This document shows, piece by piece, positions 114 through 23,141 of a stretch of DNA of 64,000 bases. How positions within the stretch are numbered: the first letter of the stretch is position 1; each line of letters opens with the position of its first letter. Source of the stretch: a virus; the IMG/VR virus record IMGVR_UViG_3300023223_001973, positions 1-64,000 of that record; one strand, 5' to 3'. The notes under the pieces were generated by a model that did not search any database, was not told where the DNA came from, and worked only from the letters and a program-made list of their open reading frames with translations. Position numbers and translations under genes: made by a program.

Positions 114-896
114 GTGACCCCTGTGCATGAGCGTTGGAAGAATACAGGCCTTGTTGACAAGTATGTCGTCTCTAAGAAGGACGGCTCACCTGTCGCAGAG
201 GATGCTGAGTACTTCGTTCTCCGACTGGATGAGGCTTGCAAGGACCATAGGCATGTGATTGCGTGCCGTGCTGCGGCCTTCCTGTATGCTTCTATGATCC
301 GACAGCATCTTCCCTTGCTGTCCTCTGATATCATCCAGAAGATCAAGGTTCTGACTAAGGAACATTCAGAGGTTAACTGGTCCTCTATCTCGCCTGCAGA
401 GGTCTACCTTGAAACTGGACGACCCTCCAGTATGACCCATGAGGAATGGCTGATTACCATTGTGAATATCAAGGTTGCTATTGATGCTATCCGACAGGTG
501 CAGATTGATCTTCTGTCTGGCTTTCGTGAGTTTGTTGAGAAGAAGTTGGAGCTGGTCAAGTCTAAGGGCGACCCGCCAAGTGCTCTTGCTGTTGAAGGGT
601 TGCTCAATGACATGATTCAAGAGGTGGATGACACTGGCGCAACCTTAGGCCTCTGCATCTCTGTTCATGGCAAAGCTCCAGAGAAGGACCCTCTGACTGA
701 TATCTTCGAGACTGAGGATAAGCTCATTGCGGCCATAGGGCCTGTTAACCTCATTGGACATCTTCAATCTCATTGTTTGGCAACTGCTGATCATCCCACT
801 GAAGAGACCAAAGCTGAGACTGAGAAGTGGGAACGGACTGCCAAGATGTTGTATGAGGTTCACAACCAGTTGAAGGAGATCTGGGACCCTAGCTGA
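114..896 (+). CDS. Hypothetical phage protein
   Basis: 260-aa ORF with GGAG RBS; its stop TGA is the first three bases of the TGAACCT promoter box. Confidence 0.7.
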   Translation: MTPVHERWKNTGLVDKYVVSKKDGSPVAEDAEYFVLRLDEACKDHRHVIACRAAAFLYASMIRQHLPLLSSDIIQKIKVLTKEHSEVNWSSISPAEVYLETGRPSSMTHEEWLITIVNIKVAIDAIRQVQIDLLSGFREFVEKKLELVKSKGDPPSALAVEGLLNDMIQEVDDTGATLGLCISVHGKAPEKDPLTDIFETEDKLIAAIGPVNLIGHLQSHCLATADHPTEETKAETEKWERTAKMLYEVHNQLKEIWDPS

Positions 897-918
897 ACCT
901 AACACTCTCTTCTACGTA
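894..918 (+). promoter_or_regulatory. Phage ECF-type promoter TGAACCT-N14-CGTA
   Basis: TGAACCT 894-900, CGTA 915-918; same motif and spacing recur at seven other sites. Confidence 0.8.
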
Positions 919-955
919 CTATTGTCTAGTAGGCCTTTAGACAAAGGAGAGAGTC

Positions 956-1210
956 ATGGCATCAGTAAGAACCCAGGTTGCGGAAGCCGTTGCGGAGCGC
1001 ACATCGGACAACGGGAACTTCGAAGAGTACCGTTGCAAGTTCGATTGGGAGATCACGGACCAGCGTCTCCTGGCTCGTTTTATCGCGAAGGTGGAAGCTC
1101 ACGAACTGGAACCAAATCAGGTTCGTTGGTATGTGAAGCGCCTGAACTTCCGTAACGTCTTTATCCCAGACTCCGTTATTGACATGCTCCGCTCCGGCGT
1201 ATATGTCTAG
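956..1210 (+). CDS. Small hypothetical protein upstream of the RAMP gene
   Basis: 84 aa, AAGGAG RBS, first gene after the 894 promoter. Confidence 0.7.
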   Translation: MASVRTQVAEAVAERTSDNGNFEEYRCKFDWEITDQRLLARFIAKVEAHELEPNQVRWYVKRLNFRNVFIPDSVIDMLRSGVYV

Positions 1211-1239
1211 GCAATGCTGCCTAGACAAGGAGTTGGGTC

Positions 1240-1992
1240 ATGACGTATACACAGCGGGACCTCGATAAGCTTATGTCTAAGCGTCGGGGTCGGGCAATCG
1301 TCAAGTGTCGTGCTGTCCGCAAGATTGCGGGTGGCCAGCCTGCCGGTGACAAGGCTCTTGCAGCCTTCGTCAAGTATCACCTCGACCTGGATCCGGAAAG
1401 CAACGAAGGTAAGTCCGCTATCGCTCGGATCAAGAACGAGGAGATTGGGGAGAGGGATACCGGTACTCCCGAAGGCGAGCTGGACAACAAGGAAGTGTAT
1501 CAGGTCAACGTCATTCGACGGAATATGAATGGTCCCTTCCTCCTGGAACACCAGATCAAGGCCATGCTGAAGCAGTCTGCCAGCCGCCTTGGCTACTTTG
1601 TCAAGAAGCGTGGCTCCAAGGGTGACATGGCTGAGCTGGGCACAGTCCGCGCTCATGGAACCAGTCTTCAGTTTGCTCTCCGTCCTTGGGAAATTCACTT
1701 GCGCAAGAACGGGCAAAGTGCTCCCACCTCATACGACCAGATCACCGGTTGTGTGAGCACCACTCAGGGCAAGAAGTCCATCATGCACCATACCGAAGTG
1801 GCGGATGAGGGCTCCGAGTTTGCCTTCGAGTTCGACTGGATTCCTGACAAGCTGGGCAAGAATGCCATGCTGGAGATCATTGCTGCTGCCACGCAGATCG
1901 GCATTGGTTCCTGTCAGAGCTTGGGCTACGGGAAGTTCGAGGTCGTGGAGCTGGATATTGACATGCCTGTTAAGGTTAAGAAGGAGGCATAA
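1240..1992 (+). CDS. Stand-alone Cas7/Csm3-like RAMP-superfamily protein
   Basis: C-terminal G-rich loop IGIGSCQSLGYGKFEV, central 'FLLEHQIKAMLKQSA' helix (cf. P..S.KG.lR), 'TEVADEGSEFAFEF' strand; AAGGAG RBS. No other cas genes in the window. Confidence 0.8.
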   Translation: MTYTQRDLDKLMSKRRGRAIVKCRAVRKIAGGQPAGDKALAAFVKYHLDLDPESNEGKSAIARIKNEEIGERDTGTPEGELDNKEVYQVNVIRRNMNGPFLLEHQIKAMLKQSASRLGYFVKKRGSKGDMAELGTVRAHGTSLQFALRPWEIHLRKNGQSAPTSYDQITGCVSTTQGKKSIMHHTEVADEGSEFAFEFDWIPDKLGKNAMLEIIAAATQIGIGSCQSLGYGKFEVVELDIDMPVKVKKEA

Positions 1993-2630
1993 CTCGACCT
2001 TACGAAGCACAGCGGCCATGCATCATTCCACCGCGCGAGACGAAGCGGCATTGCGTCACAAGACTTGACATATCATGACGAAGAGGCAAAGCAACATGAT
2101 GCATGGCGTAACTAAGCGGCATGACAGGATGTAACTTAACCCAACGTAGAGGCTTAACCAGTCCAAGCTGGTCGGTACTGAACTAAGCGGCTATACAATG
2201 CACGTCTTTACGAAGCGGCGGGACCAGATAAGTCGTGACACTACCCGACGGAGTGGCAGAGCCTTACTCGACATTACTTTACGGAGTGGCAATGCAAGGC
2301 TGAGCAGTGCCGAGCGGCAGGACATAGCTCTACGCTACCACACGCAGAGGCACTACTGAATCATGCCTGACATTGCTTAACAAAGCGGCAGGACGCTACT
2401 CCACACGACGAAGTGGCATGACGCGACTCCACAGGACATGGCGGCTCGACAAGACCGAGCACTATAAGGCTGAACTGGACGAAACAGAGTGGCCAAGCCT
2501 GATGAATCTGTGCGACACAAAGCGAAGTGGCAAGACGGGATGGTACGCCACCTAACTGAACGCAGCGGCAAGTCAAAACAGGACGATACATTGCTGAGAG
2601 GCGAGACAAAACGGGACATTACGCCGCGGC
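1989..2630 (+). repeat. Pentamer-periodic array: 19 units of (NNN-RC)n closed by NNAGH-GGC; putative guide-RNA array
   Basis: Parsed by hand without gaps: 117 pentamers plus 19 GGC trimers = 642 nt; unit lengths 28/33/38/48; the 98 internal pentamers end in AC (60), GC (23), AT (8) or TC (7). Confidence 0.92.
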
Positions 2631-2635
2631 ATAGC

Positions 2636-2660
2636 TGAACCTAAAGACCTCCTCTACGTA
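2636..2660 (+). promoter_or_regulatory. Phage ECF-type promoter
   Basis: TGAACCT 2636-2642, N14, CGTA 2657-2660, directly after the array. Confidence 0.8.
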
Positions 2661-2680
2661 TTGTAAGTGAGGAGATTATT

Positions 2681-3037
2681 ATGAGTAAGGTTGCTGACAA
2701 ACTCCGGGTTATCAAGATCTATAATGATCATGGGATCTCTGAGCCTGGCGGTGTTTACATCTCCCGTAGATCACGAGGTCCCTGGAAACCACCTGCTTGG
2801 ATAGTTCACATTCAAGGTAAGAGCTTCAAGACTGCTGGTCGTGAGGATAATGGTGGTAGGGCCTTTCGTATTGAGGGCCGTGGAGATGTGAAGGACTGTC
2901 TCGCGAGAGCTATTGATTGGTGTCAGCAGAACCTTGGGACGTATTACTTTGTGAAGTCACCTTTCGGTGGCGGAAACATGGTTCAGGAGTCCTTCCTCAA
3001 GAAGGCCATCAAGAAAGCTGATGATGTGCTTGCCTGA
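2681..3037 (+). CDS. Hypothetical protein
   Basis: 118 aa, GAGGAG RBS, downstream of promoter. Confidence 0.7.
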   Translation: MSKVADKLRVIKIYNDHGISEPGGVYISRRSRGPWKPPAWIVHIQGKSFKTAGREDNGGRAFRIEGRGDVKDCLARAIDWCQQNLGTYYFVKSPFGGGNMVQESFLKKAIKKADDVLA

Positions 3038-3168
3038 TGACCTTCCAACTCTGGCCCTTCCTCAGTGGGAACTGGAGATGCTTGAATTTCAGAAGAAGCT
3101 GAAAAAGGAAATGGATGCTTATTTCCGCTCTAAAATGATAGTTCCTGCTAAATACTTTGGAGGCCCTT

Positions 3169-3672
3169 ATGAAAGTAGTCGATCTGTTAGAACTGATCAA
3201 GGACGTGGACCTGGAGGCAGAGGTCCCGAGCGAGATCATCGACAAACTGACCCAGGTACCTGATGGCTCACCGCCTCGCCCTGTCCGTGGTAAGCTTCCC
3301 AACCGTCGCAATGGAATAACCCAGAAGGTATCTGTTGCTCAGCAGACAGTCTATCTCCGATCTGGACTGTATGAAGATGGTTCTCTGGGTGAGATATTCA
3401 TTGACATGTCCAGACAGGGTGCTGGTTATCGTTCCATTATGGGCTGCTTTGCTATCGCGGTAAGTCTTGGTTTGCAGCATGGTGTACCGCTTGAACGCTT
3501 TGTTAATGCTTTTGTATGGACAAGATTCGATCCGCAAGGCCAAGTTGCTGGCCATCCTTCTATAAAACACTGTACGTCAGTGGTGGACTATATCTTTAGA
3601 GACTTGGCTTATCACCATCTTGGTGATGAGGATATGGCTAAGTATGATCCTAAGGAGCACTCTTACCTATAA
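3169..3672 (+). CDS. Stand-alone class II ribonucleotide reductase (NrdJ) C-terminal TSCPD-like domain
   Basis: [14 protein letters not shown]...[14 protein letters not shown]...[15 protein letters not shown]...[11 protein letters not shown]; GGAGG RBS before ATG 3169. Confidence 0.8.
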
Positions 3673-5260: not shown

Positions 5261-5521
5261 ATGGACACCATGAAGAAGGGGAACATGCAGGACCAGGCTA
5301 TGGGAACCTGGTTTGTGGATTCCACTGGTACTGTCTTTCTGAAGTGTCCCTTGTGTGGTAGGGTTGGTAGTCTTCGATCTCCTGGGGATAAGGAGGGTCA
5401 TGAGATTGACTCTTACGGTGTAGTCTCTCCTTCTTTAATATGTCCTCGTAAGGGTTGTCCATTTCATACTGAGATTCAGCTTGAGGATTGGAAAGATGAA
5501 GCGCACAAGCCGTTGTCCTGA
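5261..5521 (+). CDS. Small putative Zn-binding protein
   Basis: CPLC...H...CPRKGCPFH. Confidence 0.6.
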   Translation: MDTMKKGNMQDQAMGTWFVDSTGTVFLKCPLCGRVGSLRSPGDKEGHEIDSYGVVSPSLICPRKGCPFHTEIQLEDWKDEAHKPLS

Positions 5522-5726
5522 GATTAATGAGCGTAGGCTTCGAGCTCGCTTGGAAGGTGAGATTAATCAGGCTTGCAAGGAAGGTCTTATTACTGATGGT
5601 AAGATATTTAATGTTGACTGCTCTCACCCTCATGGCGACAGTGCTCACTTTGCTCTCAAGCCTTCTAAGGGTGGTGAAACTTTACCCGCGGCTATGCGTC
5701 TCTTCGAGGCTGGGTCAAGAGAGTGA
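5496..5726 (+). CDS. Hypothetical protein
   Basis: Short ORF filling the gap; ATG 5496. Confidence 0.4.
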   Translation: MKRTSRCPEINERRLRARLEGEINQACKEGLITDGKIFNVDCSHPHGDSAHFALKPSKGGETLPAAMRLFEAGSRE

Positions 5727-5729
5727 GAC

Positions 5730-6326
5730 GTGGTTACTAGCTCCCTAAGTGAGGTTGGGTTTGCTATAGGGAATGGAGAGACAAGGAATGGCGTCGATCT
5801 CGGACATATCTCTCAGTATGGTGTTATCTACGGCTGTAATGCGCTATATCGCGACTTCTCTCCTGACATCCTAGTCTCTGTTGATCGTCTTATGATTGGC
5901 GAGATCATGGAGTCTGATTACTCGGGCCGCATGATCTATCGATCTCGTGAGGAGAAAGGTTGGTTGCACTCTACCTGGGAAGATAGGTCATATATTGATA
6001 AAGGGTGGTCAGCAGGCCCGACTGCTGTATGGTTGATGTGTAAGCGACATGTGAACATTAGGCGTATATTCCTAGTAGGATTTGATTTGGATAGTACACC
6101 CGGATCAGGTGGGAAAGATCATCAGAACAACATCTACAAAGGAACCGCCAATTATCGTACGGCTGATGATCCTAATGCTCCTTCAAGGAACTGGGAGAAG
6201 CAGCTCTTGCAGGTGTTTAAGGAGTTTGGGCATATCCAGTTTGTAAGGGTTGGTGGGGAGGATCCACCAATACCCTGGCGACAGTTCTCTAACGTGTATC
6301 AAAACGACCTTGATATCTTGCCTTAG
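5730..6326 (+). CDS. GT29/Maf-like (DUF115-type) nucleotide-sugar transferase-fold protein
   Basis: AIGNGETR, IYGCNALYRDFSPDILVSVD, SAGPTA, IFLVGFD motifs. Confidence 0.65.
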   Translation: MVTSSLSEVGFAIGNGETRNGVDLGHISQYGVIYGCNALYRDFSPDILVSVDRLMIGEIMESDYSGRMIYRSREEKGWLHSTWEDRSYIDKGWSAGPTAVWLMCKRHVNIRRIFLVGFDLDSTPGSGGKDHQNNIYKGTANYRTADDPNAPSRNWEKQLLQVFKEFGHIQFVRVGGEDPPIPWRQFSNVYQNDLDILP

Positions 6327-7200
6327 GGGGTGTATTATTATCGTTCAGGTGCCTACCGGGATTGGAGACTTCTCTTGGGTCTATAGCAAACTTGCTTCTC
6401 TTGAGATTCCAGTGACAATAGAGGTCTGTGCCGGAGGACCTGCTCGCCTTCAACCTATAGCTGAGCTGCTTCCTCGCATTGAGAGGATGTATACTGGAAA
6501 TATAGGTTATGGTGAGCTAGCTGTGAAGCAGCTGCCTGCCGAGACAACTCGTGCTCAGTTGATGGCCTGGCCCGCAGGTGCACCTATTCCACTCTCATGC
6601 AATACCCACCTGGAGAATGGTAATCGTGTGGAGACCTGGCTCCCAGATATTCCTACCTATCACCATTACCCTGTTCTAGTCTCTCAGCAGGACATTGACC
6701 AGGCCAAGGCTCTTGTTCCCTTCAAGGACTATGTCTGTATCTATGCCTCAAGTAAGGCTACTTGTGCTACCTGGACGGGGTGGATGGGTCCTCAGTGGGT
6801 CGAGTTTATGAATCTATTCCGGGATAAGATAGCACCTATGAGCTTTGTTCTGATTGGTGCACAATGGGATGTGGATCTTGGAGTAGAGGTTCAACAGTGT
6901 GCTGCTGTTGCTCAGATACCCTTTGTTAATCTAGTGAACCTAACCAGGTTGGGTACTGCCTTAAAGATTATCAAGAACTCTCATTATATGGTGTCATTCC
7001 CGTCTGGGATGGGCATTATGTCTCATGTTATTCGTCAGCCCTGCACAATGTTCTATCCTTCTCCTCTTGTCAAGATGCTTCGTACTTTTGTATCTCCAGA
7101 GTCAGCTGCTCTGAATAGGTTTCATGAGACTATTTTCTGCCCACCTGCAGAGCTTATACAATGGCTGCTTGATGTTTATAAGATTAAGGAGCATCTATGA
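6250..7200 (+). CDS. GT9-like (heptosyltransferase-fold) glycosyltransferase; true start probably near 6337
   Basis: IIVQVPTGIGD N-terminal motif; NLVNLTRLGTALKIIKNSHYMVSFPSGMGIMS C-terminal GT-B motif. Confidence 0.7.
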   Translation: MVGRIHQYPGDSSLTCIKTTLISCLRGCIIIVQVPTGIGDFSWVYSKLASLEIPVTIEVCAGGPARLQPIAELLPRIERMYTGNIGYGELAVKQLPAETTRAQLMAWPAGAPIPLSCNTHLENGNRVETWLPDIPTYHHYPVLVSQQDIDQAKALVPFKDYVCIYASSKATCATWTGWMGPQWVEFMNLFRDKIAPMSFVLIGAQWDVDLGVEVQQCAAVAQIPFVNLVNLTRLGTALKIIKNSHYMVSFPSGMGIMSHVIRQPCTMFYPSPLVKMLRTFVSPESAALNRFHETIFCPPAELIQWLLDVYKIKEHL

Positions 7201-8051
7201 GGCCTGACTGCGTGAAGGTAGGCTATGGTGATCCACAGCATGGAATTGCTCTTTCTGTAGTGGTCCTATTTTGTGACTTTGATGATGAACAGACGAGGGC
7301 CTCGGCAACTGCTTGCCTACTGTCTGTTCGCGAGACTGCCCCCGTGGATTGTGAGATCATCTGTGTACTGAATAACGTCTCGACTGAGCTTCTTGCCTTC
7401 GTGGAACATGCTGCTGATCGTGATGGTCGCATTGTATTGATTAATCTTAGTGTAAACTTGGGCGTGGTGGCTAAGAATCTGGGTTATGAGATTGCCCAAG
7501 GTAAGCTCATCTTCTCCATCGATGGTGACGTTCTAGTTAGGGATAGGAAGGCCTTTACTGATTGTGTTACCTTTATGGAGAGCCGTAGACATATTCATAC
7601 AGCTCTGATAGGTCCATGTGGTGGTATCTTGGACAAGGAACGATGGACTGATGAAGACTGGCCTATTGCTAAGTGGGAAGAGGGCTCTAATGCCTTTGGG
7701 TATGATGATCCTATCGACTTTGGTGGTGAGGTTGCTGATCTTCATGGCATGAAGGTAGATGCCATACCCAGCTTGTTCTGGTGCTTTCGCAAGGAGGTCA
7801 TGGAGGAGGTAGGATCTCTGGACTGGAGGTTTGGTCCCTTTGTAGGATCTGACTCTGATTTTTGCTTTCGTGTTAAGGAGGCAGGATACGATATATGCCT
7901 TGTGAGAGTTCCTATTACCCATTATGGAGGTGGTGCGAGTACGCACAAGGCCTTCAAGAAGGACATTGATTTCCTAAGGGGAAGTCATATCAAGCTGCTC
8001 TACGATCTGTGGTATGAGAAGTTTGATGTGATAAGTGAGGGAGGCAAATGA
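7197..8051 (+). CDS. GT2 family glycosyltransferase
   Basis: LSVVVL...EIICVLNNVS...NLGVVAKNLG...FSIDGD (DxD)...DSDFCFRVKEAGY. Confidence 0.85.
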   Translation: MRPDCVKVGYGDPQHGIALSVVVLFCDFDDEQTRASATACLLSVRETAPVDCEIICVLNNVSTELLAFVEHAADRDGRIVLINLSVNLGVVAKNLGYEIAQGKLIFSIDGDVLVRDRKAFTDCVTFMESRRHIHTALIGPCGGILDKERWTDEDWPIAKWEEGSNAFGYDDPIDFGGEVADLHGMKVDAIPSLFWCFRKEVMEEVGSLDWRFGPFVGSDSDFCFRVKEAGYDICLVRVPITHYGGGASTHKAFKKDIDFLRGSHIKLLYDLWYEKFDVISEGGK

Positions 8052-20060: not shown

Positions 20061-20420
20061 ATGTTTAGGGTTCCAGCTCTCAAAGAGCTTGAAGGGGTTG
20101 ATGCTGAGCCTCTTGGTAAGAAGATCTGGAAGTATGAGCGGTTTGTACACAAGCAGCGTATCCTTATAGTAAATACCAACCTCTCTGATCCTTCTGAGAA
20201 GATCTTTATGATAGAGTACCAGATTGGGCCTGAGGTTCTCAACTCCATTATTGAAGGCGTATCTACTATAGAAGAGGCGCTCAAGAAGTATGCCAAGACC
20301 ATGCATAGTAGCCTGATTGAGATGAAGAAGAAGATTGATACGCAGCGGTTTAGAGCAAATAGCGCACCTCCACCTGGGTTTGATATTCAGGGTCCTGATC
20401 GCGGTATAATAACCCCTTGA
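20061..20420 (+). CDS. Hypothetical protein
   Basis: GGAGG RBS before ATG 20061. Confidence 0.6.
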   Translation: MFRVPALKELEGVDAEPLGKKIWKYERFVHKQRILIVNTNLSDPSEKIFMIEYQIGPEVLNSIIEGVSTIEEALKKYAKTMHSSLIEMKKKIDTQRFRANSAPPPGFDIQGPDRGIITP

Positions 20421-20442
20421 ACCTAAGCTCATGCCATGCGTA
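20418..20442 (+). promoter_or_regulatory. Phage ECF-type promoter
   Basis: TGAACCT 20418-20424, CGTA 20439-20442. Confidence 0.8.
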
Positions 20443-20467
20443 CCTTCCTTAGAAAAGGAGGTGCCGA

Positions 20468-20980
20468 ATGGGCATGACGTTTACGGAACCAACCGTAGTC
20501 ATCAACTACAAGCCTTATGCTAAGATGATGCACTACATTCGCTGGGCCAAGGGTGAAATCTCTGGCTTCGGTGAAGCAGAGTTCAGGGACAACCACGTCG
20601 TAGTGGTTAAGTCCGTTTTCATCCTTCCTCAAGAGTGTTCAGCTGCATACACTGAGCTGACCGAAGAGGGTCTCACCGACTTTCTGTACCACTGTGCTAA
20701 AAAGGGTAAGGACCCCTCTAGCTTTCGGTTCTGGTGGCACTCACACGTGAACTTCAGCGTGTTCTTCTCCACGATTGACACTGACAACATCGCAAGGTTG
20801 GCCTCTGTTGCACCTTGGGTGTCGCTCTGTGCCAACAAGAGGGGGCACATGGTTGCCCGTTATGATGATGGTGGGAAGTCTACCCCCATGGGCATCTTCG
20901 TAAACCCTACTTCTGGCTCGCACCTAATGCGCATCTGCAGAAAGCAGATAAAGCGGATGGTCGGGCCAGTGAAGTCATAG
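20468..20980 (+). CDS. JAB/MPN+ metalloprotease (deubiquitinase-like)
   Basis: GEISG (catalytic E); WWHSHVNFSVFFSTID = HxH-x7-S-x2-D. Confidence 0.85.
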   Translation: MGMTFTEPTVVINYKPYAKMMHYIRWAKGEISGFGEAEFRDNHVVVVKSVFILPQECSAAYTELTEEGLTDFLYHCAKKGKDPSSFRFWWHSHVNFSVFFSTIDTDNIARLASVAPWVSLCANKRGHMVARYDDGGKSTPMGIFVNPTSGSHLMRICRKQIKRMVGPVKS

Positions 20981-21022
20981 CTCCAGAGTCACTTTGGGAT
21001 CTTTACGGTGAAGGAGAGGACG

Positions 21023-21823
21023 ATGAATCAAGCTGACTATAGCCGTCAGTCTGACCTTGTGAACATGGCTGTCTTGCAGGGCCTCCGTGCCACGGTTATC
21101 GGTGCTGGAGCTGTGGGCTCTTACTCTGCACTGGCGTTGGCCAAGATGGGGTTGGGCACCATTGAAGTCTATGATGACGACGTTGTGGCCCCGCACAACC
21201 TGCCAAACCAGTTCTTCCGCAACTCTGACACGGGCAAGCTGAAGGTGGATGCCCTTGCAGAAATTCTGGCTGACTTCACGGATGCTACGGTAGAGCCCCA
21301 TGCTGATCTATACAACGATCAGGAGTTGTATCCTGTGGTGATCGTGGCTGTTGACTCTATGGCTGCTCGCCGGGTGGTCTGGGAGCAGTTCAAGGGTTCC
21401 AATGCTCAGGTCTACATTGAGGCCCGCATGGGCGGTCAGCTCGGTGCTGTTTATACCATCCGCAAGGCTCAAGGTGTCTTGTCTGAGGAAGACAAGCTCT
21501 GGTATGAGCAGTATCTGTATGATGACAGTGAAGCCGACCCTGTGCGGTGTACCGAGAAGTCCATCATTTACAACGTGCAGATGATATCTTCTCTGATCTG
21601 CCGTGCTCTCCGTGCTGTGATCATGCGCGAGGAAGGGTACCCGAAGGAGTTTGTCTTCGACATGCACCACATGCAGACGTACTCGCAGGAGACCCTTGTT
21701 GAGGAAGAGCTGGTAGAGATTGAGGCTGACGTTGAGGACATCTTCGATGAAGATGAGGACGAGAATGACCTGGATGATGAGTTCGGTGAAGAGGACGAGA
21801 TTGAGTATGAGGTCATTACCTGA
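21023..21823 (+). CDS. ThiF/MoeB/E1-like adenylating enzyme with acidic tail
   Basis: YSRQ, VIGAGAVGS, YDDDVVAPHNLPNQ, GKLKV, AVDSMAAR, candidate catalytic Cys in PVRCTE. Confidence 0.9.
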   Translation: MNQADYSRQSDLVNMAVLQGLRATVIGAGAVGSYSALALAKMGLGTIEVYDDDVVAPHNLPNQFFRNSDTGKLKVDALAEILADFTDATVEPHADLYNDQELYPVVIVAVDSMAARRVVWEQFKGSNAQVYIEARMGGQLGAVYTIRKAQGVLSEEDKLWYEQYLYDDSEADPVRCTEKSIIYNVQMISSLICRALRAVIMREEGYPKEFVFDMHHMQTYSQETLVEEELVEIEADVEDIFDEDEDENDLDDEFGEEDEIEYEVIT

Positions 21824-21845
21824 ACCTCCTATCTCCTTATGCGTA
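21821..21845 (+). promoter_or_regulatory. Phage ECF-type promoter
   Basis: TGAACCT 21821-21827, CGTA 21842-21845. Confidence 0.8.
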
Positions 21846-21863
21846 TAAGTAGTAGGAGAGGTT

Positions 21864-23141
21864 ATGGCAAGACGCAGTAATCCACATGAAGCCTTTCAAA
21901 ACTTCCTGAATGAGCAGGAGAGGGCTCGCTTGCGTCTTAACGATACTCCGGAAGCTGTTGAGGAAGATCAGCTCATAGAGATGGAAGACATGGACTCTGC
22001 TGTCACTGGAGGTACTTCGTCAACGACGATCCGGGTAGAGATCAATGATGGTACGGATGCTACCTTCTCGATGCGAGAGGTTACTCCTACGCCCGCAACG
22101 CGCCCTACTCAGGCTGAGGCCCGGAGAGCTCGACGCCGCCGCCTTATTGGTAGTAATCCTCCTACCCCTCGTAGGCGACGCCGCCGCCCTCGTCCCGTTG
22201 CAGACCCGACTGAGAATGAGGGGAAGGGTAGGTCGAAGCATAAGATCTTTCTGGACCCGTACAAGGACCTTTTGCCACGCGAGTTAAAGCGTAAGGGTAA
22301 GAAGTTCTTCAAGACTATTCTGTTCTCCTCTAAGCTATGGGAACGGGTAGAGTGGTACTGGCGCTACATGGCCGGTAAATCCTATCAGGGTAAGAAGTCC
22401 CGGGATACATCGGTACAGCCCTGGGTTGCCATGTTGGGTGAGAAGGATGGGGTGGTCTCTCGCTTTGTCAAGGCGGACACTGGTAGCCAAGGTCAGCATG
22501 GTGGCTGCTGGAACATGCCCGATCTGACGATTGATGAAATGACGTATGCCGCTGTAAAGCTGGCAGAACGTGGTTACTCTCTGGTTGGAGTGATTCGGGT
22601 AGGCCGGTTTGAGTTGGATGAAGCGGTAGGACTTCGCGGCCCGGCACTTCAAGAGTTTGCACAACAGGGAGCCAACTTCTTCATGCTCTCGGTAGGCATT
22701 GAGGGAGCATGCGTTGAATGTTGGGACCTTGCCAAGCGTACTATAGTTGAGCACAACTATCGTGTTTTAGCCCCGGGTGAGAAGCCCACAGAAGAGGAGA
22801 AGCGTCATGGCCAAGGAACTGAAGAAGGCAAAGAAGTCGAAGAAGGTCAAGAAGAAGTCGAGCGGCAGCTCGGAGCTGGTGCAGTCGGGAGGCATCCGAG
22901 TGATGCTGGTCAAGCTGGCGGAGCCGATGAAGGTGGCGAACCTGCAGAGGGCGTGCTCCCTCAGGGAGTTCCTGGATCGTCGGAACATGCAGCTGAGCCC
23001 GAGCATCCGGGTGAACCGGAAGGTCCGGAGCGGGGACTATGTGCTTCAGGACAACGACATCGTGACTCAGATCACCAAGGTCAGCGGCGGGAACGTGAGC
23101 TGACCGATGCGGAAAGGGCGCTGTGGGGCATCATGGAGTAG
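21864..23141 (+). CDS. Hypothetical protein with Arg-rich tract and possible inactive MPN-like domain; 3' part overlaps the Ubl gene
   Basis: AGGAG RBS; VAMLG...GYSLVGVIRVG resembles an MPN core without HxH. Confidence 0.55.
   Translation: MARRSNPHEAFQNFLNEQERARLRLNDTPEAVEEDQLIEMEDMDSAVTGGTSSTTIRVEINDGTDATFSMREVTPTPATRPTQAEARRARRRRLIGSNPPTPRRRRRRPRPVADPTENEGKGRSKHKIFLDPYKDLLPRELKRKGKKFFKTILFSSKLWERVEWYWRYMAGKSYQGKKSRDTSVQPWVAMLGEKDGVVSRFVKADTGSQGQHGGCWNMPDLTIDEMTYAAVKLAERGYSLVGVIRVGRFELDEAVGLRGPALQEFAQQGANFFMLSVGIEGACVECWDLAKRTIVEHNYRVLAPGEKPTEEEKRHGQGTEEGKEVEEGQEEVERQLGAGAVGRHPSDAGQAGGADEGGEPAEGVLPQGVPGSSEHAAEPEHPGEPEGPERGLCASGQRHRDSDHQGQRRERELTDAERALWGIME
22807..23103 (+). CDS. Ubiquitin-like (ThiS/MoaD beta-grasp) protein with Lys-rich leader, ending GG-NVS
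   Basis: SLREFL...IRVN...DYVLQDNDIV...KVSGG; own AGGAG RBS; next to E1 and JAB. Confidence 0.75.
   Translation: MAKELKKAKKSKKVKKKSSGSSELVQSGGIRVMLVKLAEPMKVANLQRACSLREFLDRRNMQLSPSIRVNRKVRSGDYVLQDNDIVTQITKVSGGNVS

Follow-up and report, generated by a model that had tools for sequence, protein, structure and literature searches.

Can a phage operate its own ubiquitin-like (Ubl) conjugation pathway, and if so, how would the tag be transferred when no E2 enzyme is recognisable? This question is raised by a gene cluster in the window, the whole stretch of 64,000 nucleotides that was analyzed, which an earlier note had interpreted from the letters of the DNA as a three-gene module of a JAB protease, an E1 and an Ubl. 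All three genes were recovered at the positions proposed, and JAB, E1 and Ubl without a recognisable E2 represent a real phage-borne module (Table 1). However, the three-gene description had overlooked a conserved fourth gene in the interval between the E1 and Ubl genes (21864-23141), here called CysMPN, which we regard as the most interesting part of the module. The phage record that was searched comprises 99.7 kb, corresponding to approximately 41% of the genome according to CheckV. No close DNA relatives of the window were identified in the phage DNA collection, and no description of a JAB-E1-CysMPN-Ubl cassette was found in the literature searched, which lay largely outside subscription journals.

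Table 1. Coordinates of the cassette genes, their parts and candidate regulatory elements in the window.
Feature	Position	Strand	Basis or remark
JAMM/MPN+ metalloprotease (JAB), 170 aa	20468..20980	+	ORF and motif read directly
JAB motif codons	E30 20555-20557; H91 and H93 20738-20746; S101 20768-20770; D104 20777-20779	+	
Minimal E1-like adenylyltransferase (ThiF family), 266 aa	ATG 21023 (or GTG 21008)..21823	+	Pfam ThiF
E1 invariant Cys176	21548-21550	+	Alignments A4, A6
E1 acidic tail, ~45 aa	about 21686-21820	+	
TGCGTAT box, candidate phage promoter element	21840..21846	+	17 nt upstream of CysMPN start
Further TGCGTAT boxes	20036, 23190, 40128		
ATGCGTA upstream of JAB	20436		
CysMPN gene, 425 aa	21864..23141	+	18 core homologs, AF2, fold searches
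CysMPN Arg-rich N-terminal region	21864-22235	+	
CysMPN zinc-less MPN-fold core	22236 to about 22790	+	
CysMPN invariant G214-C215-x-x-M218	Cys codon 22506-22508	+	
CysMPN disordered tail, read across Ubl gene	22806-23100	+	
CysMPN short acidic, aromatic C-terminal peptide	23101-23138	+	
Ubl Shine-Dalgarno GAGGAG	22794-22799	+	7 nt upstream of ATG
Ubl gene, 98 aa, nested in +1 frame of CysMPN gene	22807..23103	+	ORF, homologs, codon usage
Ubl parts	Lys-rich leader aa 1-29; ThiS/SAMP-like core aa 30-95; NVS tail		
Ubl G94-G95	23086-23091	+	
Ubl stop	23101-23103	+	

The JAB sequence contains the complete zinc and catalytic motif E ... H-x-H-x7-S-x2-D (E30, H91, H93, S101 and D104), in agreement with the intact active site described previously. 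A phmmer search of the PDB produced a match to Rpn11 (E=2.7e-5) that spans this motif, and the motif aligns with those of the JABs in related cassettes. With the window protein as the phmmer query, JABs were identified in 26 viral loci, the best of them at 1e-39. The score against the Pfam family Prok-JAB (PF14464) was below the curated cut-off (15.1 bits versus 25), and the PF01398 profile had no match anywhere in the record. The protein was thus assigned to the JAB family based on the motif and the PDB match, although the Pfam cut-off was not reached.

The E1 consists of one ThiF domain at residues 21-222 (Pfam, 76.3 bits versus a cut-off of 28.1, 2.6e-21), with matches in the PDB to E1s and to PaaA and 177 homologs at E<=1e-10. 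The GxGxxG motif and the Asp residues are present, and G27, G29, G32, D51, D53, K74 and D111 were conserved in the alignments. The sequence contains a candidate catalytic Cys and no zinc-binding CxxC pairs, just as had been noted. This residue, Cys176, does not vary in either of two separate alignments (6 and 22 relatives) and is conserved without exception in both of the cassette types described below. Its position suggests that it is the equivalent of the crossover-loop Cys and hence a putative thioester site. In place of N-x-x-R-Q, the sequence reads NLPNQ, without the conserved Arg, and N62 is common to all 22 relatives; the chemistry of this family may therefore differ from that of canonical E1s. 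The relatives are 215-235 aa long, span 80-84% of the query and lack the acidic tail of approximately 45 aa.

The Ubl ends in VSGG-NVS. Its sole close homolog, P0001, annotated by JGI as a MoaD-like protein, is 67% identical and terminates exactly at VSGG. Viral relatives terminate in VSGGC, VSGGSF, VSGGR, VNGGKI or VQGG, and 0-3 residues lie beyond the GG in the window protein as well as in more than a dozen relatives from viruses. Three relatives are tandem di-Ubls with KGG at the end of each repeat, so that they would need a processing protease. A spurious Ubl frame was rejected, given that P0001 and viral relatives exist and that the proteins have GG ends. The best PDB match of the Ubl profile, over the full length (E=0.005), was SAMP2, a conjugated archaeal Ubl that has been solved together with its JAMM protease, and the Ubl relative in locus L005 exceeded the Pfam cut-off for ThiS (24.8 bits versus 22.5). 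The AF2 model displayed the correct order of strand-strand-helix-strand, but with a pLDDT of 52, and Foldseek with this poor model was uninformative. Thus, the GG-NVS terminus attributed to the protein is confirmed, whereas for the beta-grasp fold the support comes from profiles. The Lys-rich leader of the Ubl and the acidic tail of the E1, which had been proposed as a docking pair, are both specific to this phage.

The +1 frame of CysMPN contains the entire Ubl gene, whose codon usage (GC3 0.91, T3 0.05) keeps the CysMPN frame open across this stretch with 0 stops. Seven distant CysMPN homologs have tails that are compatible with the same nested Ubl; judging from codon compatibility, these tail-bearing homologs may also contain one. 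A frameshift introduced during assembly was rejected, since the same arrangement is implied in the seven distant homologs and the query did not include the tail. Recent transfer from a GC-rich donor is a less likely explanation of the high GC3, because the overlapping frame is affected by T-ending codons alone; moreover, only the CysMPN frame is free of stops (0 versus 7 stops) and the GC3 values of non-nested relatives are ordinary. The AAG repeats that encode the Lys-rich leader are read as GAA in the overlapping frame, where the same DNA specifies a Glu-rich stretch; either of the two may therefore be a by-product of the other. In the CysMPN family, the Ubl is missed by gene callers because the long frame is called and the tail resembles low-complexity protein. 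Translation of the Ubl would start at an internal ribosome-binding site within the CysMPN gene, in the +1 frame, so that the tag and the disordered tail of its putative carrier are specified by one stretch of DNA.

Two phage promoters had also been proposed for the cluster. These did not hold up beyond short recurring boxes, TGCGTAT (21840 and 23190) and ATGCGTA (20436): as a longer motif, a 15-mer, the box was not above chance, and the scans for sigma-70 promoters and terminators gave results at chance level.

A full HMMER scan identified 18 homologs for the core of CysMPN, while a word-indexed protein search identified none, and no matches were obtained in Pfam, PHROG, NCBIfam or PADLOC. The AF2 model of the core (pLDDT 82, pTM 0.82) matched PfJAMM1 and Rpn11 in Foldseek at about 2e-5. 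In the VIA fold search, the highest Z-score, 13.5, was obtained for BRCC36 and PfJAMM1, and all 35 matches with Z>=8 were MPN chains, including both MPN+ enzymes and the MPN- proteins Rpn8, CSN6, KIAA0157 and Abraxas. No UBC-fold chain was present among the best matches listed in either search, which were MPN domains down to Z 8. The similarity to JAB profiles by hhalign was without signal (probability 0.2). None of the JAMM zinc or catalytic residues is retained: in the register given by the secondary structure, R-x-G replaces HxH and the Glu of strand 2 is absent. The sole motif retained is G-C-x-x-M, which is present in 31 of the 31 family members, six paralogs in locus L019 included. The order of secondary structure elements would place this motif between strand 3 and helix 2. 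At the corresponding location in Rpn11, the Ins-1 segment touches the tail of ubiquitin. We know of no description of such an invariant Cys motif in MPN- proteins. CysMPN may be E2-like in action, without being classed as an E2.

Searches for related loci in IMG/VR with E1, CysMPN or P0001 as single-gene queries retrieved no relatives, nor were any loci obtained with alignment A2 or with P0024. The 32 related loci were obtained solely with the E1 alignment A6 as the query. When the lengths of contigs with E1 homologs were compared with those of contigs with CysMPN homologs, no contig was common to both. JAB and E1 genes are adjacent in about 27 of these, which extends the proposed phage module without a recognisable E2 to other viral loci. 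The order JAB-E1-CysMPN-Ubl, with 1 to 6 copies of CysMPN, was observed in the window and in five contigs from uncultured phages (L017-L021), among them a contig of 223 kb with six CysMPN paralogs. JAB and E1 are the only genes from the neighborhood of the window that recur in the related loci, the flanks being otherwise unrelated, which suggests that the module moves as a unit.

A sister type of cassette, PRTRC/6d-like with the order Ubl-E2-JAB-E1, was identified in phages and mobile elements (L005, L015, L023-L026, L031, L033 and L044). The JAB and E1 are homologous to those in the window (E1, 1e-18 to 1e-49), and the Ubl also belongs to the type found in the window: its core reads IRVN..D(Y)VL..GD, and a short tail follows the terminal Gly. 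These cassettes start with the Ubl and contain an E2-like protein with the motif HPH..C(L/E)G upstream of JAB, whereas the window type has CysMPN between E1 and Ubl and no protein with this motif. One contig, L018, contains a cassette of each type. The earlier note had reported no evident E2 and named a search of the genome as a check; neither the profiles PF00179, PF14461 and PF14457 nor a scan for the HPH..CLG motif identified an E2 in the 99.7-kb record (approximately 41% of the genome). Divergent E2s are often missed by Pfam. The E2 motif was also absent from the CysMPN cassettes in the other phages, unlike in the sister cassettes. CysMPN thus belongs to the cassettes that show no E2, and it is the best candidate for the role of the missing E2, the alternative being that it is a JAB partner.

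Comparison with known systems revealed both similarities and differences. The BilABCD systems, types I and II of which correspond to classes 6c/6d of Iyer et al. 2006 (Chambers et al., PMC10557695), are likewise compact operons on mobile DNA that encode a JAB, an E1 with a conserved Cys, and an Ubl whose conserved C-terminal Gly precedes a few residues that are not conserved. The E1 can act on BilA only after BilC has removed the residues beyond the conserved Gly, and both tail trimming and deconjugation have been demonstrated for BilC (PMC10557695). However, Bil is a host defence system with an E2 of the UBC fold (BilB/CEHH) and an E1 of several domains (IAD, AAD and a CYS domain, with a Zn site), whereas the cassette in the window is phage-borne, its E1 is a single ThiF domain of 266 aa without CxxC, and in place of the E2 there is a zinc-less MPN-fold protein with an invariant Cys. 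The Bub pathways (class 6e; Ye et al., PMC11601596) show that bacterial Ubl routes may depart from the canonical Cys thioester cascade. They also have JABs in unusual architectures, and a BubCD structure is among the fold matches of CysMPN (Z 8.0), but the JAB-E1 fusion, the Ubl-E2 fusions and the oxyester (Ser) chemistry of Bub were not seen in the window.

A parallel without a recognisable E2 is archaeal. Like the window cassette, the SAMP/UbaA/JAMM1 system (for example PDB 5lda, P. furiosus JAMM1-SAMP2) combines a ThiS/MoaD-type Ubl ending in GG with a JAMM protease in a gene set that shows no E2; SAMP2 is the best profile match of the Ubl in the PDB and PfJAMM1 the best fold match of CysMPN. 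It differs in that UbaA has Zn-binding CxxC pairs and also functions in sulfur transfer, in that the system is cellular rather than viral, and in that there is no MPN- partner bearing a conserved Cys. Eukaryotes pair an active JAMM with an MPN protein that lacks the metal site (Rpn11-Rpn8, CSN5-CSN6 and BRCC36-Abraxas/KIAA0157). The fold of CysMPN is similar to these, with Z-scores of 10-13.5, yet there is no detectable sequence similarity, and unlike the eukaryotic MPN- proteins CysMPN occurs in up to six tandem paralogs.

On balance, we consider it probable that the cassette is a phage module for Ubl activation and conjugation with CysMPN as an E2 surrogate or as a JAB partner. The biochemical steps, all of which we infer, would start with synthesis of the Ubl as the precursor VSGG-NVS, from which the JAMM protease would remove the three-residue tail and thereby expose Gly-Gly. 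The minimal E1 would then adenylate the C-terminus of the Ubl and may carry it on Cys176. From there, the activated Ubl would be transferred to targets, possibly phage or host proteins, via Cys215 of CysMPN, which would replace the E2. The alternative route would be transfer directly from E1, as in archaeal SAMPylation, which proceeds without an E2, with CysMPN as a partner or adaptor of the JAB that binds the Ubl tail. The conjugates may be reversed by the same JAB.

The bolder form of this proposal, which we offer tentatively as a possibility, is that the zinc-less MPN protein is a new type of Ubl carrier or ligase: a former deubiquitinase fold that has lost its metal, gained a Cys beside the groove for the Ubl tail, takes the Ubl thioester from E1 and replaces the UBC E2. 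In one branch, the gene for the tag would have been overprinted into the gene for the carrier and maintained by selection, tying the synthesis of the two together.

Rather unlikely, in our judgement, is the interpretation that CysMPN serves the JAB as a partner without catalytic activity, in a heterodimer of MPN+ and MPN- proteins comparable to Rpn11 with Rpn8 or CSN5 with CSN6, which positions or regulates the protease while E1 alone performs conjugation as in SAMP/Urm1. The lack of any JAMM ligand and the presence of Rpn8, CSN6, KIAA0157 and Abraxas among the fold matches are in line with this, as is the window JAB being nearer to Rpn11 than to the Prok-JAB family, and archaeal SAMPylation (for context, see PMC2948915) needs no E2. 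However, a structural partner is not expected to retain a lone invariant Cys while the active site drifts, as in the L019 paralogs, and the ratio of one JAB to between one and six CysMPN paralogs is a better fit to specificity factors than to a fixed heterodimer.

We consider it improbable that the cassette is a sulfur-carrier system, in which the Ubl adenylated by E1 is converted to a thiocarboxylate that donates sulfur to a phage product (a modified nucleoside, a cofactor or a DNA modification) and the role of the JAB is limited to maturing the carrier. In its favor, the Ubl belongs to the ThiS/MoaD type, as seen from the annotation of P0001 and from the relative that passes Pfam ThiS, the E1 is a single-domain ThiF-like enzyme, and there are sulfur-assimilation clusters that combine ThiS/MoaD-like proteins with an E1 and a JAB (Iyer 2006, PMC1779556). 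Against this, the 99.7-kb record contains no rhodanese, cysteine desulfurase or PP-loop ATPase/sulfurtransferase, and none is fused to the E1; an E2 or a sulfur-relay gene may be located elsewhere, since the record covers approximately 41% of the genome. The tandem di-Ubls and the E2-like proteins of the sister cassettes favor conjugation, and CysMPN has no counterpart in sulfur pathways. Membership in a thiamine or molybdopterin pathway was rejected because no partner genes were found, consistent with the previously reported lack of thiamine, molybdopterin and tRNA-thiolation genes nearby.

Very improbable is a counter-defence device in which the phage Ubl, E1 and JAB disturb host Ubl immunity (Bil, CBASS Cap2/Cap3) by acting as a decoy, stripping conjugates or modifying defence proteins rather than by tagging phage structures for assembly: the E1 is matched by CBASS Cap2 profiles over their E1 halves (PADLOC E1-E2, 3.6e-16; NCBIfam 6A-MBL cap2_3, 6.7e-16), the bacterial relatives are defence systems (PMC10557695, PMC11601596), and among phages the cassette is mobile, with a patchy distribution and unrelated flanks, but the Cap2 matches span just the common adenylation fold, a JAB alone would be enough for stripping, and a full activating arm with a private Ubl favors a phage that writes its own tags.

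So far, bacterial Ubl conjugation has been characterized as a means by which hosts defend themselves against phages (Bil, CBASS Cap2/Cap3 and Bub). Here, the phage of the window and dozens of uncultured large phages have a tag, an activator and a trimming protease of their own, and the branch to which the window belongs has, instead of an E2 fold, a conserved Cys-bearing relative of the deubiquitinase itself. The nested Ubl gene also provides a clean and testable example of conserved overprinting in a phage. If it is true that CysMPN carries the Ubl, the function of an E2 would have been invented independently on a different fold, and the cassette would illustrate a new way in which Ubl pathways can be put together.

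The JAB, E1 and Ubl genes described in an earlier note on this sequence were confirmed where that note had placed them, based on motifs, the Pfam ThiF family and the GG-ended Ubl. The JAMM motif of the JAB is complete (E30, H91-S-H93, S101 and D104), and a phmmer search of PDB sequences identified Rpn11 as the top match (E=2.7e-5) in an alignment spanning the motif; in Pfam, the JAB scored below the curated thresholds. The E1 matched E1 enzymes in PDB and also aligned with CBASS Cap2 profiles in their E1 halves. It consists of one domain, lacks a CxxC pair and contains a cysteine, C176, that is invariant in alignments of six and of 22 relatives. Canonical E1/MoeB enzymes carry the ATP-binding motif N-x-x-R-Q. 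The window E1 displays NLPNQ in its place, with the Arg replaced, and the entire phage E1 family in our alignment of E1 relatives shares NLPNQ, with an invariant Asn instead of Arg.

Features of the cassette and its surroundings in the window
Feature	Start	End	Strand	Remarks
DHH/DHHA1 phosphoesterase gene	17356	18210		PHROG 4771 at 7.5e-54
Sigma-factor-like gene	18248	18910		PHROG 1740
Sigma-factor-like gene, paralog	19343	20029		PHROG 1740
JAB	20468	20980	+	170 aa; preceded by AAGGAGG
E1	21023	21823	+	passes Pfam ThiF, 76.3 bits
CysMPN	21864	23141	+	425 aa; between E1 and Ubl
Ubl	22807	23103	+	98 aa; GAGGAG 7 nt 5' of ATG; C-terminus VSGG-NVS
TGCGTAT (or ATGCGTA) boxes	20036; 20436; 21840; 23190; 40128			17-45 nt 5' of several start codons

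The product of the fourth gene, CysMPN, showed no match to a recognised family in any family library searched. When residues 1-314 only were used as the query (the tail was excluded), 1.8 billion representatives scanned in full with HMMER yielded 18 homologs. Few residues are invariant in their alignment: G-C-x-x-M(P), which includes C215, R-x-G-x-F and some Gly, Pro and Ser. The AF2 model of residues 125-314, built with the homolog alignment, was confident (pLDDT 82, pTM 0.82), and MPN/JAB domains ranked first in both fold searches. Foldseek retrieved PfJAMM1 and Rpn11 (~2e-5), BRCC36 and PfJAMM1 reached Z 13.5 in VIA-align, where each of the 35 matches at Z>=8 was an MPN domain, whether active or inactive. 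With the register set by the order of secondary structures, R-x-G occupies the HxH position and the strand-2 position has no Glu, which makes the protein an MPN fold lacking the metal site. The single invariant Cys has no His or Asp partner. In the model it probably lies in the strand 3-helix 2 loop, at the position of the Ins-1 loop, which in Rpn11 touches the ubiquitin tail. Two Arg-rich tracts, RRARRRR and RRRRRRPRP, are located in the N-terminal 124 residues (21864-22235), and the closest homologs lack these tracts; distant homologs have repeated SH3/Tudor-like modules at the N-terminus instead.

The Ubl gene is located wholly within the CysMPN reading frame, in the +1 frame, and a TAG at 22768 closes the Ubl frame shortly upstream, so that Ubl is not a simple fusion. 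Third codon positions of Ubl are 91% G or C and 5% T, as compared to a GC3 of 0.54-0.65 and a T3 of 0.22-0.30 in the neighbouring genes. Each Ubl third position coincides with the first position of a CysMPN codon in the overlap, and every stop codon starts with T. We kept the Ubl protein fixed, resampled its codons and scored whether the CysMPN frame stayed open, which was the case in none of 20,000 trials with the usual codon usage of the phage and in just 12-15% of trials with the skewed usage of Ubl itself. The other alternative frame across Ubl contains seven stops; GC3 is ordinary in the five non-nested relatives, whose corresponding frame contains 1-13 stops.

Similar low-complexity tails past the core were observed in seven of the 18 CysMPN homologs (P0006, P0007, P0008, P0010, P0013, P0014 and P0015), though the query had excluded the tail. 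When all codons were enumerated, 39-47 out of 66 residues in the Ubl core were compatible with the +1 frame of each tail, as compared to at most 33 for shuffled controls and 26-30 for five homologs without such tails. The match uses a single ungapped register every time and includes RVNR, DY.L..DI and KVSGG. All eight proteins, including that of the window, extend past the Ubl end by 16-360 residues, in most cases reaching a short peptide of acidic and aromatic character. They fall within one branch of the CysMPN tree; its support is weak (83/81) and the terminal branches are long. Based on the codon skew, the redraw trials and the seven compatible tails we conclude that the overlap is probably old and maintained, with nesting in the homologs judged from codon compatibility at the protein level. 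In two metagenomic homologs, P0014 and P0025, the frame across the implied nested Ubl extends for 330-360 residues into an unrelated C-terminal region.

The sole close database homolog of the Ubl, P0001, is 67% identical and ends exactly in VSGG. With a profile built from the Ubl and related sequences, SAMP2 of P. furiosus was the best PDB match, over the full length (E=0.005), and a more distant relative passed Pfam ThiS. The AF2 model displays the right order of elements at low confidence (pLDDT 52), for which reason we consider a beta-grasp fold only likely. The earlier note had suggested that the Lys-rich Ubl leader and the acidic E1 tail form a charge-complementary docking pair. The 45-residue tail is peculiar to the window E1, since its relatives end at 215-235 aa. 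The leader (22807-22893, AAG repeats) is, as a consequence of the overlap, the same DNA, read in another frame, as a Glu-rich stretch of the CysMPN tail (GAA repeats), which offers a simpler alternative to docking; at most one of these two need be functional.

A scan with the alignment of E1 relatives identified 32 IMG/VR loci, of which many belong to contigs 80-223 kb long, and the JAB directly adjoins the E1 in approximately 27 of them. The five loci nearest to the window (L017-L021) retain its order JAB, E1, CysMPN, Ubl; their CysMPN genes number one, one, six, three and one in turn. G-C-x-x-M alone is retained throughout these CysMPNs; R-x-G-x-F has drifted as well in the six L019 paralogs. 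Their Ubls end in VSGGC, VSGGSF, VSGGR, VNGGKI and VQGG, and an improved Ubl profile revealed small GG-ended reading frames in most of the remaining loci. Three of these are tandem di-Ubls in which every putative beta-grasp repeat ends in KGG, like those of a polyubiquitin precursor (L027, 7925-8338; L030, 6882-7328; L033, 6960-7367), and which therefore require a processing protease. The di-Ubl genes adjoin phage JAB-E1 pairs.

A second type of cassette encodes an E2-like protein with the motif HPH(V/I)...C(L/E)G upstream of the JAB (L023-L026, L031, L033, L044 and the metagenomic L005 and L015). In the loci with flanks read (L005, L015 and L023-L025), it lies between Ubl and JAB, in the order Ubl-E2-JAB-E1. 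No E2-like motif was found within 6 kb of the CysMPN cassettes, except in L018 (IMGVR_UViG_3300037067_004901), where both types are complete, each with a separate JAB and E1: one E2-JAB-E1 and one JAB-E1-CysMPN-Ubl (300-3567 and 5262-7595). The L005 (694-3384) and L015 (5932-8599) cassettes, comprising a Ubl (KIEGA plus a tail at the C-terminus), an E2-like protein, a JAB and an E1, are on metagenomic mobile elements. This E2-like protein contains HPHVSDERLCEG and, at its C-terminus, Cys-rich zinc ribbons in an array, and an ArdC-like gene is located upstream of the L015 cassette.

The window covers the initial 64 kb of an IMG/VR virus record of 99.7 kb, which is only ~41% complete according to CheckV, and the source is therefore a large phage. 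The genome search for an E2 that the earlier note had proposed detected none in the whole record, neither by three Pfam families nor by an HPH..CLG-type motif. All genes surrounding the cassette are on the + strand. Of the window genes, 20 located from 14 to 31 kb were compared with those loci, and JAB and E1 were the only ones to recur, which indicates that the module moves as a unit and that its flanks give no functional hint. A phosphoesterase gene and two paralogous sigma-factor-like genes, with weak matches to Sigma70 region 4, are located just upstream. The TGCGTAT box may be a phage-specific promoter element; searched as a 15-mer, it occurs at chance level.

The previous interpretation is thus supported as far as a JAB, E1 and Ubl module without a detectable E2 is concerned, and every biochemical step of the cassette is one that we infer. 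The most attractive reading is that CysMPN would serve as an E2-like carrier, given the cassettes without E2, the lone invariant Cys, a fold that binds Ubl tails and the paralog expansions. A role for CysMPN as an Rpn8-like partner is a serious rival to the carrier. Sulfur transfer by the cassette is less favoured, as no rhodanese, cysteine desulfurase or PP-loop enzyme was found in the 99.7-kb record and none is fused to the E1, and the di-Ubls and E2-bearing sister cassettes point to conjugation. Operons of E1, E2, JAB and Ubl were predicted in 2006 (PMC1779556), the JAB of Bil has been shown to trim a short tail after the Gly before the E1 can act (PMC10557695), and Bub has been shown to depart from the Cys cascade (PMC11601596). 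No account of a phage JAB-E1-CysMPN-Ubl cassette was found in a literature search. Two features of the cassette are unusual: the presence of a cysteine pseudo-JAB where no E2 shows, and a conserved gene within a gene.
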